A stretch of DNA of 64,000 nucleotides from Picochlorum sp. SENEW3 (taxonomy: Eukaryota). Made by a program: the position numbers and the translations under genes. This document shows positions 12,067 to 16,868 of this stretch, in pieces (position 1 is the stretch's first letter; every line of letters begins with the position of its first letter). Under the pieces are notes generated by a model that ran no database searches, was not told the origin of the DNA, and saw only the letters and a program-made list of their open reading frames with translations. The stretch spans positions 744,001-808,000 of the forward strand of contig CP120463.1 in assembly GCA_034226945.1 (NCBI GenBank), read 5' to 3'.

Positions 12067-12400
12067 GAAGAGACTTTCTTTTGAACTTTTCTAGTCTGAC
12101 TACAAAAGATAGCACGGAATCCTCATTTCTGTGGATTAAAGCTCCCTTGATGGGTCCATAAACGGTATTATTATTTAAATAATTCTGATTTGGCTAAATC
12201 AAAGGCAAACGCGCTCGGAGTACCTGTCACGTGGATTTGTTCTGCAAATAATGCCTACTCCCGATGAAAACATATTGTGTCCGATCAAGCATCGCCTTTG
12301 ATGGGTAGATATGGAACCATCACATTCCCACGCCATTGTCCATTGATACACGTTAGAATTGACTATACGGCATTACGTATTTACATATACATGGTTTGGC

Positions 12401-12886
12401 ATGATTGACAAATCACAGTTTACAGTCATCAAGGTGTGTTGAGGACCATTTTGTGGTTGGGGATGCATGGGGACCTTTTGTGGGTGGCTAATTTTTTTAT
12501 TCCCAAAGCATTCGTTTCGTTCATGGATCGCCACGTTACACATGATTTTTTTATTATTGCAGTTGTACAGAGACTGTCTTCGTCTGGCTGATTACATCAG
12601 CACAAAGGTGTGTCTTTTCTCACCTCCCCTTGCAGTATCGTCTTCTGACGAATATCACTCTTCATACTGACGATGCTGTTCGGTCTATCTGTAGGGAGGA
12701 AATAGACTTGTGTTGAGAACGCAGGTTCGTGAAGCGTTTAGGAAGAATAAGGACGAGACAGATCCTGAGGAGATTGAGAAGCAGAAGGACGCAGCTGTGA
12801 GAGGTTTGTCAAATTACATGTTCTTTGAGGCGCAGCGCATGGCAAAAGAAGAGATTCAGGATGGAAATGACAAGTTTGACGGATAA
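12401..12886 (+). CDS. LYR-motif (Complex1_LYR) protein
   Basis: Only a fragment appears in the ORF track. Exons 12401-12433, 12563-12607 and 12695-12886 give MIDKSQFTVIK LYRDCLRLADYISTK GGNRLVLRTQVREAFRKNKDETDPEEIEKQK..., with the LYR..LR and FR.N..E.D signature. Confidence 0.85.
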
Positions 12887-14636
12887 AATAGCCCATGTCT
12901 CTAGGAAACATGTGAGTTGGGGGGCGAGAAGGGTCTTGGATAGGAGACCTTGTGTTCAGTGTCGGCAGTGTGTTGTGGCATCAAAGAAGAAGGATGTTGG
13001 TGACGCAGATAGTAGTTCTTTATTTTTAAATGCTTTGGAAAAGCTCGAATCTAGTGCATTGGAACTGATTCCTGATGAAGAGCTCGTGGAAGAGGAGGAG
13101 GAGATTGCAGAAGAAGGGTATGCAGTTGAAGAAGACGAAGAAGAGGGAGTGCCTAGTGAATCTAGGCAGTATCAGAGCAGGCGGGCTCGAAATAGAGGCC
13201 AACCATACGAAAAAGAGATTCCAGACGATATGCTTCCACGCTTGTGTATTGTTGGGAGGCCCAATGTGGGTAAGAGTGCCCTGTTCAATCGCATTGTGGG
13301 GAAAAAGGTTGCCATTGTCTATGATTATCCTGGAGTGACACGAGACAGGTTGTACACCAGGGCGAACTGGGGAGGAAGGGATTTCATGTTGGTGGACACA
13401 GGAGGTCTCATGAGTAAAGCGGAAGAGCTTCCTGATGGAGAACGAGAGCAGGCAATCCGATCCATCTCTGAAAAGTTTCTACCTACTGCAATTGAGCGCC
13501 AGGCAGCTGCTGCTGTTGAGGAATCCGACTCGGTCATTGTTGTGGTGGATGGCCAGACTGGTCCAACAGCGTCTGATGAAGAGGTACTGTCTTGGTTGCG
13601 GCAATCACATCCAGGAAAGCATGTCACTCTGGCTGTAAACAAGTGTGAGAATCTTGCCAAAGCTGATGAGCAAGCTTCCGCATTTTGGGAACTTGGCATT
13701 GAACCCATTGCAGTGTCTGCAATCAGTGGGAGTGGAACAGGAGATATATTGGATGCAGCTGTGAAGGGATTACCTCCTCCTCTAGGATATGATACTATAG
13801 AGGAAGCAAAAGTGCCGATAAGTATGGCTATTATTGGACGACCTAATGTTGGGAAAAGCTCCTTGTTAAATTCCTTGGTAGGAAAAGAGAGGTCCATCGT
13901 GAGCTCAATGGCTGGAACAACTCGGGACGCCATCGACACAGATATTGAAACAAGCGATGGAAGACGTTTCAAACTGATTGATACAGCAGGAGTTAGGAAA
14001 AGAGCATCAATTGCTTCGGGAAAAGATGGTGCAGAGCCCCTATCCGTAGAAAGAGCATTCCACGCTGTGAGAAGAGCTGAGGTCGCTGTGCTCGTGATTG
14101 ACGCTTCCGAGGGAGTCACGCAGCAAGACTTTCGCCTTTCAGAGTACATAGCAGCAGAAGGTCGAGCCTGTGTTGTTGTTGTGAACAAATGGGACAAGGT
14201 ACCAAAGACAGATCATACACTGGCAGATTTCGAGGCAAATGTCAGAGCAGAGCTGCGCCCCATTGAATGGGCCAACATAGTCTTCACATCTGCGCTGACG
14301 GGTCAACGAGTCAAGCGTGTTCTTGATGCTGCAACAGCAGCAGCAGAGGAGCACAGACGGCGGATCACAACTGCAACATTGAACATGGTCATCCAGGATG
14401 CCACCGGCTGGAGAGCCCCTCCAAGCACAGGAAGTGGTCGTCGCGGAAGAGTGTATTATGGAACTCAAGCTGGCATAAAACCCCCAACCTTTGTCCTCTT
14501 CTGCAACGATCCCAAATTATTCCCAGAGGACTACAAAAAGTTCATGGAACGTCAATTCAGAGAAAACATTGGATACCCTGGTAGCCCAATACGAATCTTT
14601 TGGAGGGGCAAAACGCAGAATACTGATATAGAATAA
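12861..14636 (+). CDS. engA: EngA/Der double GTPase, probably plastid-targeted
   Basis: Two G-domains (GRPNVGKS, DTGG/DTAG, NKCE/NKWD) plus KH-like C-terminus (PPTFVLF..Y..F.E). First in-frame ATG is 12861. Confidence 0.95.
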   Translation: MEMTSLTDKIAHVSRKHVSWGARRVLDRRPCVQCRQCVVASKKKDVGDADSSSLFLNALEKLESSALELIPDEELVEEEEEIAEEGYAVEEDEEEGVPSESRQYQSRRARNRGQPYEKEIPDDMLPRLCIVGRPNVGKSALFNRIVGKKVAIVYDYPGVTRDRLYTRANWGGRDFMLVDTGGLMSKAEELPDGEREQAIRSISEKFLPTAIERQAAAAVEESDSVIVVVDGQTGPTASDEEVLSWLRQSHPGKHVTLAVNKCENLAKADEQASAFWELGIEPIAVSAISGSGTGDILDAAVKGLPPPLGYDTIEEAKVPISMAIIGRPNVGKSSLLNSLVGKERSIVSSMAGTTRDAIDTDIETSDGRRFKLIDTAGVRKRASIASGKDGAEPLSVERAFHAVRRAEVAVLVIDASEGVTQQDFRLSEYIAAEGRACVVVVNKWDKVPKTDHTLADFEANVRAELRPIEWANIVFTSALTGQRVKRVLDAATAAAEEHRRRITTATLNMVIQDATGWRAPPSTGSGRRGRVYYGTQAGIKPPTFVLFCNDPKLFPEDYKKFMERQFRENIGYPGSPIRIFWRGKTQNTDIE

Positions 14637-14900
14637 CGAGTATCTCGATCCAGATGTAAAAGAAAATCTTGTTTCATACAGCCAATATGAAACTTTTCAT
14701 GTCTAATATGACAATTGCAAAGCAATTGCCTTGATCATGATGGCAATGATGTTGCAGTACTGCTCTTCACAAGAGATTTAAATCACCATCTCAACAAAAA
14801 AACAGTCCGAGGCCATTAAGTACATAGATATTTTTATATTAATATCTGTTGAAATCAAATAAAAGGGAGATCGGATTTGAAAACACGCATATTTGTCGTC

Positions 14901-16868
14901 ATGGGCGACGACAATCATTCTGCAGGGGGAGGAGTTGGTTCCCAAAACACGCAAACCACCGATGGCATGGTGGATAAGCATATACGTTATGATAGAGGTA
15001 TTCGGATATGGGGCATACATGGCCAAGCCGCTCTTGAGCAGGCAAAGATTTGTTTGCTGAATTGTTCAGCTACAGGGTCAGAGGCTTTAAAGAATATGGT
15101 CCTTGGTGGTATCAACGCTTTCACGATTGTGGACAACTCTTTAGTTATAGATGAGGACTTGGGGACGAATTTCATGGTTCATCCATCATCCTTGGGGCAG
15201 CTGAGGGCGAAAGTGGTGACAGGTATGTGTTGACCTGACTAGTGGTGTCCTCTGGCCACTGGATGCATCAGTAGATTCATATGGTCGTCTCATTGTAATG
15301 CAGAATGTTTGAGAGAGCTAAATGATCATGTCGATGGGAGCTATGTGGAAGAGAGCCCCGGGAATTTGATTGCAAACAATCCTAGTTTCTTTGATGATTA
15401 TAGCATTATTATTGGGACTCAGTTGTCTGAGCAGGACTCGATAGCGTTGGATGCGATATGCCGACGATGCAACATTCCTGTGGTGTATGCAAGAACGTAT
15501 GGCCTTTCAGGAATGCTGAGGGTGCGTGGCATAGTGTGTGATGTGCATGAATCATGGTAGAACTCATCCGAGTACTTCAAACTGTCTCTTGGTTGTAGAA
15601 TTCTGTGATGGAGCACTGTGTGATCGAGTCAAAGCCGGAAAGTACTGTACATGATTATAGGTTTGGGTACCCATGGCCTGAACTGGAAAAAATGGCAACC
15701 GATCTGGACCTGGATGAATTGGGTGAGGCAGAGCACAGCCACGTGCCATATGGTACGTCCCTTGTGATGAGTTTTCAACCATTCTTGTGAGTATGTTGTG
15801 CTCATATCTAATGACATTGTACTGCAGGTGTCTTACTGGTTAGGGCAATGAGTGAATGGAAAAGAAAGCATCCAGATGCAGAGCTGCCAATCAGCTCAGA
15901 AGAGCGTAGAGAATTCAAGGCCCTTCTGAAATCATGGCAGCGCAAGATTGATGATTGCCCAATTCCTGAGGAGAACTTTGACGAAGCAGTATCGAATATG
16001 AATAAAGTATGGGGGCCTAAAAAGATTCGTACGTGGTGCAATGTATATGACAGTTGGTGAAATGGTATACTAATTTGATGGTGGCTCTTTTTTGGATGCA
16101 GCCTCTGAAATCCTCGCAATTTTCGACGATGAAAAGTGTCAAGAGCTGACAAATCAATCGAGTAATTTTTGGATCATATGCGCTGCCCTGAAAATGTTCA
16201 CCGAAACCATGGGACAGGGACATTTACCAGTGTGTCCTACCCTCCCAGATATGCATTCAACAACCACCAGGTATCTGGAGCTCCAACAGGTGTACAAGGA
16301 TCGATTTGCTGAAGAGGTTCAAGCAGTGCATAAGCATTGTATTGATATTATGAAAACATTCGGTATTGATACGTCCCGTATATCATCAGAGCTCGTAAAG
16401 ACTGTGTGCCTGCATGTCAGAACCTTGAGGGTTGTGAGGACAAAACCATACCTGCAGTTAGACGAACCCAGCACCTTATCAGCCATGAAGCGTGTTATAT
16501 CATGTGAGGGAAAGGGCTCGGCCGCCGCTATTCTACTTCTTCTGCGCTGCGTTGACTCATTCCATGAGCAACACAAGCGATTTCCTGGGGAAGGAGAAAC
16601 AGCTGACAGGGAGGAAGATGCAGCTCTCCTCAAGCATATACTCGCGTCCTCCACAGACAATATGTTTACATCCATCGATAGCAACGAGGATATATTGTTT
16701 GAGCTCGTTCGAGCAGGTGGCAAAGAATTGCACTGCGTAGCATCCGTCATGGGTGCATTGGCGTCTCAAGAGGTTATCAAACTTTTGACTGGCCAATGCG
16801 TTCCCGTCGGGGGCACCCTTATTTATGACGCCATGAACTGCTCCACCACTATATTTGATATTTATTAA
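14901..16868 (+). CDS. NAE1: NEDD8-activating enzyme E1 regulatory subunit (APP-BP1/AXR1)
   Basis: [51 protein letters not shown] and ELHCVAS..SQEVIKL motifs. Multiple GT-AG introns. Confidence 0.92.

Follow-up and report, generated by a model that had tools for sequence, protein, structure and literature searches.

A candidate bicistronic LYR-EngA locus in Picochlorum with a predicted second start codon inside the upstream reading frame

Introduction

The window analyzed here, a stretch of 64,000 nucleotides from Picochlorum sp. SENEW3 (contig CP120463.1, positions 744,001 to 808,000 of the forward strand), carries a small LYR-motif gene whose 3' end overlaps the beginning of a gene for the GTPase EngA/Der. 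The overlap raises the questions of whether both ORFs are carried by one mRNA and how ribosomes would reach a second start codon that lies inside the first ORF. The genome is compact (13.85 Mb in 14 contigs, about 46% GC). The bicistron itself is already known from Auxenochlorella protothecoides, and overlaps of bicistronic ORFs have precedent. Leaky scanning, with an inverse coupling between ORF1 and ORF2, has been shown in vivo at other algal bicistrons, as reported in portions of PMC11892635. An initial annotation of the window had proposed a “hidden” LYR gene and one mRNA encoding a probably mitochondrial LYR protein and a probably plastid GTPase. Here we describe the two ORFs, the transcript evidence, the conservation of the pair, and the codon usage bearing on how the second ORF might be translated. 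Positions are those of the window.

Results

ORF1 encodes 89 amino acids in three joined exons (Table 1). The three-exon structure and its end at 12886 stand as first annotated, on the evidence of the ORF, of spliced contigs from runs X17 and X7, and of the Picochlorum renovo protein P0001 (NNA_007972, a JGI model with PF05347), whose 89 residues are identical to those of ORF1. Annotations of P. renovo and many trebouxiophytes already include the gene, so it is not hidden. Its family marks, L12-Y13-R14 and F41, are invariant in 13 aligned rows, and exon 3 scores 32.6 bits against PF05347 (cut-off, 24.8). The predicted structure (pLDDT 79.5) has helices at residues 9-27, 30-44, and 50-82. A fold search with this model placed the LYR proteins ISD11, NDUFB9, and AltMiD51 at the top, with no match at E ≤ 0.001; the best PDB match of the protein is ISD11 (E about 1e-4). 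By profile and model, ORF1 is classified in the three-helix Complex1_LYR (LYRM) family, and its product is probably a mitochondrial acyl-carrier-binding assembly factor.

Upstream of the gene is a 5-codon ORF (12391..12408, + strand) with T at -3, which begins 7 nt from the contig start and whose stop overlaps the LYR start region. The LYR ATG has G at -3, so its context is not clearly weak. Exon 3 has in-frame Met codons at 12818 and 12839, the latter with G at +4.

Table 1. Features of the LYR-EngA locus
Feature	Position	Strand	Remarks
LYR exon 1	12401..12433	+	Start context ggcATGa
Intron 1	12434..12562	+	129 nt, GT..AG; joint in X17 and X7 contigs
LYR exon 2	12563..12607	+	L-Y-R tripeptide at its start
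Intron 2	12608..12694	+	87 nt, GT..AG; joint in X17 and X7 contigs
LYR exon 3	12695..12886	+	Stop TAA; PF05347 above cut-off
EngA/Der ORF	12861..14636	+	591 aa, no introns; two GTPase domains and a KH-like domain
Candidate dual-coding overlap	12861..12886	+	26 nt; EngA in +1 frame relative to LYR
Putative plastid transit peptide	12861..12980	+	About 40 aa, basic, acid-poor; end near V-V-A; from composition
Candidate bicistronic mRNA	12384..14654	+	Spliced X17 contig (record 17), 2055 nt, both ORFs
Candidate poly(A) signal TGTAA	14655..14659	+	18 nt past EngA stop

ORF2 scores 488 bits against TIGR03594 (cut-off, 306.7) and contains two PF01926 domains and PF14714, a profile that classifies it as EngA/Der. 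Its reading frame is closed upstream by a TGA at 12798. The ATGs in this frame are at 12861 (aggATGg) and 12867, which lie 26 and 20 nt inside the end of the LYR ORF; the next is at 13230, just before the first GTPase domain. Because there is no EngA-frame ATG between 12867 and 13230, an ATG start that keeps the leader must be inside the LYR ORF, as originally noted. The V-V-A near the end of this leader is what we take to be a V-x-A-like cleavage motif. The putative transit peptide region is maintained in the proteins P0025 and P0148, and a strain difference at 12899 leaves the EngA protein unchanged. The ORF2 product is probably a plastid ribosome-assembly GTPase, with the location predicted from the leader.

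A further ATG, at 12895, had been offered as an alternative EngA start. It does lie 8 nt past the LYR stop, but it is in the +1 frame relative to EngA and opens only 6 codons (12895..12915, + strand). As a spliced first exon of EngA it was rejected, because contigs from 4 of the 19 listed runs, which can lose rare forms, contain no joint at its GTGAGT. Elsewhere in the genome (L047, G000:C1:1106766-1108341) we detected another EngA-like gene, divergent and recovered in three pieces that each score below the cut-off; it is perhaps of the mitochondrial type.

The same four runs provided the transcript evidence; all were compared with the window as assembled contigs, and contig depth was excluded as evidence. 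In X17 and X7, which come from two studies, both LYR introns and one intron of the next gene are skipped at GT..AG, and these runs therefore behave as RNA (a judgment made from splicing, not from the run record). X16 and X1 gave no joints and behave as DNA. The X17 contig that spans both ORFs begins 17 nt before the LYR ATG, which is a contig end and not a mapped start, and the genes flanking the LYR-EngA unit sit on other X17 contigs. In X7, from a strain about 2% different, a spliced contig extends past the LYR stop into EngA, to 13154. Seven of the nine X7 differences listed for 12899-13214 are silent in the EngA frame (32 more lie beyond those listed). The X17 and X7 contigs have no joint from 12912 and none within LYR exon 3, and intron-2 sequence is absent from both of these RNA-like runs. 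Two separate mRNAs with overlapping ORFs would also be assembled into one contig, so the contigs are no proof of one molecule. Nevertheless, LYR and EngA most likely share one mRNA in Picochlorum.

A TGTAA follows EngA where it had been reported, at 14655. The X17 contig ends at 14654, and a diverged loose 3' end in X7 retains the motif. Between 12000 and 15000 on the + strand, the only other TGTAA is at 13634, inside EngA. That neither a TGTAA nor promoter space separates the two genes is correct but trivial, given that the ORFs overlap. Within 150 nt of long-ORF stops, TGTAA occurred at 38 of 97 in the sense and 24 of 97 in the antisense orientation, where about 4% is expected from coding sequence; this survey lends modest support to 14655 as the poly(A) signal. 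Just downstream (14636-14901), the public 1118-aa model P0149 combines EngA and the gene after it in one protein. Contigs of X17 end at 14654 and resume at 14844, so this fusion looks like an annotation error. On the other side, about 180 nt (12201-12383) separate the RNA-like contigs of LYR-EngA and of a divergent heavy-metal ATPase-like gene (ATG 12066, minus strand), a candidate compact bidirectional promoter.

The initial annotation had suggested looking for the pair in other chlorophytes, and it is found there. A metagenome scan recovered at least 24 LYR loci, and a same-strand EngA lies downstream in 21 of the 24 listed, which form 14 sequence groups, 13 of them linked to EngA. Among the exceptions, L019 ends too early and L005/L006 lack EngA. 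LYR and EngA have consecutive gene identifiers in P. renovo, N. desiccata, Micractinium tetrahymenae, Coccomyxa viridis, Coccomyxa sp. Obi, and Botryococcus, and one MMETSP transcript contains both ORFs. LYR-EngA fusion models account for 4 of the 129 GTPase proteins examined. In Chlorokybus, the LYR and Der genes are on separate scaffolds. Judged from gene order, LYR-EngA colinearity is conserved across Trebouxiophyceae.

Several other arrangements were noted. The LYR copy of L005 and L006 (2142-2498 and 4001-4357) is divergent, lacks introns, and has a long tail; the 1.3 kb that follow it contain no EngA. In the Trebouxia-like loci L013/L014, an apparent GT..AG intron (identified by eye) directly past the LYR stop holds all the spacer ATGs; if real, it would join both ORFs in one transcript. 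An 86-aa LYR homolog from Cymbomonas (P0221) is annotated as the chloroplast metalloprotease EGY1, and the prasinophyte LYR gene may be tied to another plastid gene. Three loci pair other LYR ORFs with neighbors. L057 (G000:C10, minus strand) has a TOM22-like ORF (2060-1734), an SDHAF3-like LYR ORF (1671-1243; both assigned by eye), and then a third, long ORF (1222-2) that starts 20 nt past the second stop, possibly a three-ORF transcript extending the known TOM22/SDHAF3 bicistron. L051 (G000:C2, minus strand) has a small twin-Cys ORF (1968-1705) and, 9 nt later, a LYR ORF (1695-1429), and resembles the pair A05.08770/A05.08765 in print. In L050 (G000:C12, plus strand), a LYR ORF (1459-1704) lies 83 nt behind a same-strand 246-aa ORF (635-1375).

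The portions of PMC11892635 used here (Duenas 2025; Datasets S1B, S2B, S3A, and S5) list UTEX250_A11.31250/A11.31245 among 43 Iso-Seq bicistrons of A. protothecoides. ORF1 (264 nt) is listed with no domain and ORF2 (1989 nt) as GTP-binding, the spacer is +37 nt, and the locus is exclusively bicistronic by Iso-Seq. DeepLoc assigns ORF1 to the mitochondrion (0.90) and ORF2 to the plastid (0.98), and the C. sorokiniana ortholog of the pair is marked PACBIO. The protein P0209 (ACKKBF_B31250, 87 aa) is homologous to the LYR protein of the window; it has four internal Met codons, and these agree with the four contexts listed for ORF1 in these datasets. The ORF2 span listed there for N. desiccata, 1986 nt, equals the 661-aa EngA P0048, whose gene identifier follows that of the LYR gene. 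The window pair is the ortholog of A11.31250/A11.31245, with orthology established for ORF1 and ORF2 matched by description and span. This Iso-Seq ortholog, the kept gene order, and the single spliced contig over both ORFs support the original reading of one mRNA for a probably mitochondrial LYR protein and a probably plastid GTPase.

The distance between the ORFs varies widely among orthologs. Relative to the LYR stop, the first EngA-frame ATG lies at +33 in L008, +25 in L016, +22 in L012, and +3 in L025. Overlapping loci have EngA-frame ATGs at -26 and -20 (the window), -26, -20, and -8 (L003), -95 (L002), -101 (L004), and -20 (L022). The window has ACG at 12879, where L003 carries its third ATG, and ACG at 12789 in LYR exon 3, where the EngA-frame ATG of L002 and L004 lies. 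The protein pairs P0005/P0026 and P0006/P0027 are consistent with overlaps of -26 and -20: of 109 LYR tails, 1 can overlap P0026 by 26 nt and 3 can overlap P0027 by 20 nt. “Compatible” overlaps of 8 nt were discarded as being at chance level, with up to 46 of 109 tails fitting. On an EngA tree built without L004 and L012 (low coverage), overlap requires two changes, one in the Picochlorum clade and one in L022, a long and compositionally odd branch.

All overlap ATGs arise from a T-ending Asp or Asn codon before a G-starting codon and are silent for LYR, and every first EngA ATG in the overlap loci has A at -3. The leaders have many basic and few acidic residues, and in the four Picochlorum-clade loci they reach a V-x-A-like site after 40-49 aa, whatever the overlap length; in L002 and L004 it is the deep ATG that restores a leader of 43-49 aa. 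The LYR protein ends in D-G-stop in spaced and overlapping loci alike, and this terminus is therefore a LYR trait and not a consequence of overlap.

We counted ATGs in 13 linked lineages, dropping L025 (unreliable exon model) and taking L002, L010, and L011 without exon 1. LYR ORFs contain 10 out-of-frame ATGs against 17.4 expected (P = 0.01), whereas EngA exons contain 125 against 102 expected. Eight of the 10 open into EngA; the other two, at -8 in L013/L014, have T at -3. In the five overlap lineages, all eight out-of-frame LYR ATGs open into EngA. Sites where a T-ending codon would form a decoy ATG, one that does not open into EngA, end in T in 2 of 36 cases (15.9 expected), and this avoidance extends along the entire LYR ORF, to about -200. 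Control sites, with the same amino acids before other bases, end in T in 30 of 119 cases (36.6 expected); being near expectation, they argue against a general codon bias. None of 200,000 simulations was as extreme, a P value that overstates the case, given the kinship of the lineages and the small size of some backgrounds.

Within smaller sets the counts are less telling. Taken by itself, the window has 2 ATGs in this count against 3.06 expected, a depletion that does not reach significance (P = 0.30), with decoy sites at 0 of 2, and the comparison of open-zone with decoy sites in the overlap lineages (8/18 versus 0/6, P = 0.066) is not significant either. The unlinked locus L005 was the control: of its 9 possible sites, 3 are ATG, and these all fall in the long divergent tail. 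For the pooled lineages, we read the avoidance of decoy ATGs, as seen in codon choice, as a signature of leaky scanning. The start contexts are ggcATGa for LYR and aggATGg for EngA, and the local consensus is rough (-3 A 0.38, +4 G 0.37, n = 86).

Discussion

We consider it likely that LYR and EngA are translated from one mRNA, with cap-dependent initiation at LYR and leaky scanning to the ATG at 12861 or 12867 for EngA. A single capped and spliced mRNA, from about 12384 to just past 14659, would bear two independently translated ORFs. The majority of ribosomes would initiate at the cap-near LYR ATG and make the 89-aa three-helix protein; some would pass this ATG and two in-frame Met codons and initiate at 12861 (or 12867). 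The product of the latter ribosomes would be a plastid EngA/Der, with the +1 frame of the LYR tail coding for the beginning of its transit peptide. In the ancestor, a short positive spacer would have separated the ORFs. Synonymous NAC-to-NAT changes before G-starting codons would then have brought the EngA start into the LYR ORF on two separate occasions, in the Picochlorum clade and in one other clade. Simple leaky scanning is opposed by the G at -3 of the LYR start and by the two Met codons ahead of the EngA start, and a linked pair by the LYR genes without an adjoining EngA in L005/L006 and Chlorokybus.

Reinitiation is the nearest competitor. Forward reinitiation is ruled out, as the EngA start lies upstream of the ORF1 stop, but ribosomes ending LYR on the same mRNA could slide 20-26 nt back and reinitiate at the EngA ATG. 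Post-termination 40S subunits move both ways over short distances, and the AUG depletion partly fits such movement (portions of PMC11892635); moreover, EngA starts cluster at -8, -20, and -26, and the two in-frame Met codons would be bypassed. We regard this as improbable, because the sole upstream EngA-frame ATGs of L002 and L004 are at -95 and -101, a backward slide that is hardly possible, because decoys are avoided along the full length of LYR, and because ORF1 and ORF2 are inversely coupled in vivo at the other loci cited above. Somewhat less probable still is a pair of overlapping monocistronic genes, with an EngA start site in LYR exon 3 and an LYR mRNA ending within EngA, for example at the TGTAA at 13634. 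The compactness of the genome would suit such genes, the contigs would look alike, and that TGTAA is present. It lies within coding sequence, however; the ortholog is exclusively bicistronic, RNA-like runs lack intron-2 sequence, and the avoidance of decoy ATGs in LYR would be purposeless.

That EngA starts elsewhere is very unlikely in our view. The candidates are a splice from ATG 12895, ATG 13230, or a near-cognate codon, which in L002/L004 would be an ACG at -8 in place of the deep ATG. In-frame GT..AG joins from 12912 can be drawn on paper, the P. renovo model P0154 begins at the 13230 Met, and the ACG at -8 is flanked by A at -3 and G at +4. Yet the X17 and X7 contigs lack such a joint, these starts would leave half or none of the transit peptide, L003 and P0025-P0027 share the ATG positions of the window, and in L002/L004 the deep ATG is what yields a leader of the usual length. 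We give the least credence to a LYR-EngA fusion protein made through splicing or a +1 frameshift, for which the LYR core at the N terminus of the four fusion models speaks. Exon 3 has no joint in the X17 and X7 contigs, the D-G-stop end persists in both kinds of loci, the spacer frame differs between loci, sister species have separate gene models, and bicistrons are frequently misannotated (portions of PMC12633428).

Returning to leaky scanning on one mRNA, we postulate, at about even odds of being right, that the EngA start wanders through LYR by silent GAC/GAT flips. In L002/L004, a stretch of about 32 codons, those of the most conserved LYR helix among them, would then have a second role in coding for the greater part of a functional plastid transit peptide, making this a conserved nuclear dual-coding stretch for two organelles that arose at least twice from a spaced bicistron. 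On this view, the acidic tail of LYR, read in the +1 frame, yields a basic string that resembles a transit peptide. The deep start of L002/L004, if used, precedes two competing Met codons and is beyond the reach of reinitiation. Spacers from +37 to -101 nt would form a natural series separating leaky scanning from reinitiation without artificial constructs, and the locus would illustrate how synonymous changes can write a targeting peptide over a conserved gene. The assignments also name both members of a published unnamed bicistron and account for EngA models that are fused or cut short in several algal annotations.

No paper listed in the literature search treats the pair by name or in Picochlorum, and the C. 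zofingiensis parts of Gallaher Dataset S1 may list more negative spacers. Apparently new, in that we did not find it in print, is one conserved bicistron whose spacer slides from positive to -101 across orthologs, with a transit peptide overprinted on ORF1. In the portions used here, the PMC11892635 dataset does not name EngA, gives ORF1 without a domain, and does not include Picochlorum; its row for the ortholog is labeled “TGD3,” at odds with EngA. The A. protothecoides bicistron resembles ours in its orthologous pair, gene order, short 5' leader, and plastid-predicted GTP-binding ORF2, with an ORF1 of 264 nt there and 270 nt here (published ORF1 median, 291), but its spacer is +37 nt compared with -26 in the window. 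Like the chloroplast DER/EngA of plants, a ribosome-biogenesis factor (portions of PMC3883289), the algal protein has tandem GTPase domains, a KH-like domain, and a long N-terminal extension, whereas its plastid location and ribosome role are predicted from sequence.

LYR proteins are common in algal bicistrons, for example, TOM22/SDHAF3, LYRM9/TPT, ETFRF1/SET, and LYRM1/OSBP (PMC7896298). These likewise combine a small LYR ORF with an unrelated larger ORF, but the partner is different, as probably is the LYR subfamily, and EngA is absent from the LYR pairs in the portions of that text and its supplements consulted. According to the preprint, most bicistron partners look functionally unrelated. 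In human MIEF1/AltMiD51, too, a single mRNA encodes a small LYR protein and, downstream of it, a large protein unrelated to it. AltMiD51 and the window LYR protein share weak similarity only (E = 0.26), and the partner differs. Presumably, AltMiD51 does not overlap the MIEF1 main ORF. Among overlapping precedents, TGATG/ATGA-type stop-start contexts occur at 3 of 5 zero-spacer A. protothecoides loci in the consulted part of the PMC11892635 dataset, and likewise in the preprint. Cre16.g658250/g658245, one of 87 fully polycistronic Chlamydomonas loci, overlaps by -103 nt and is not among the 35 rows examined of the later high-confidence list. Earlier overlaps are mostly stop-start junctions of 1-4 nt, whereas the overlap here is 20-101 nt and slides across orthologs of two conserved proteins.
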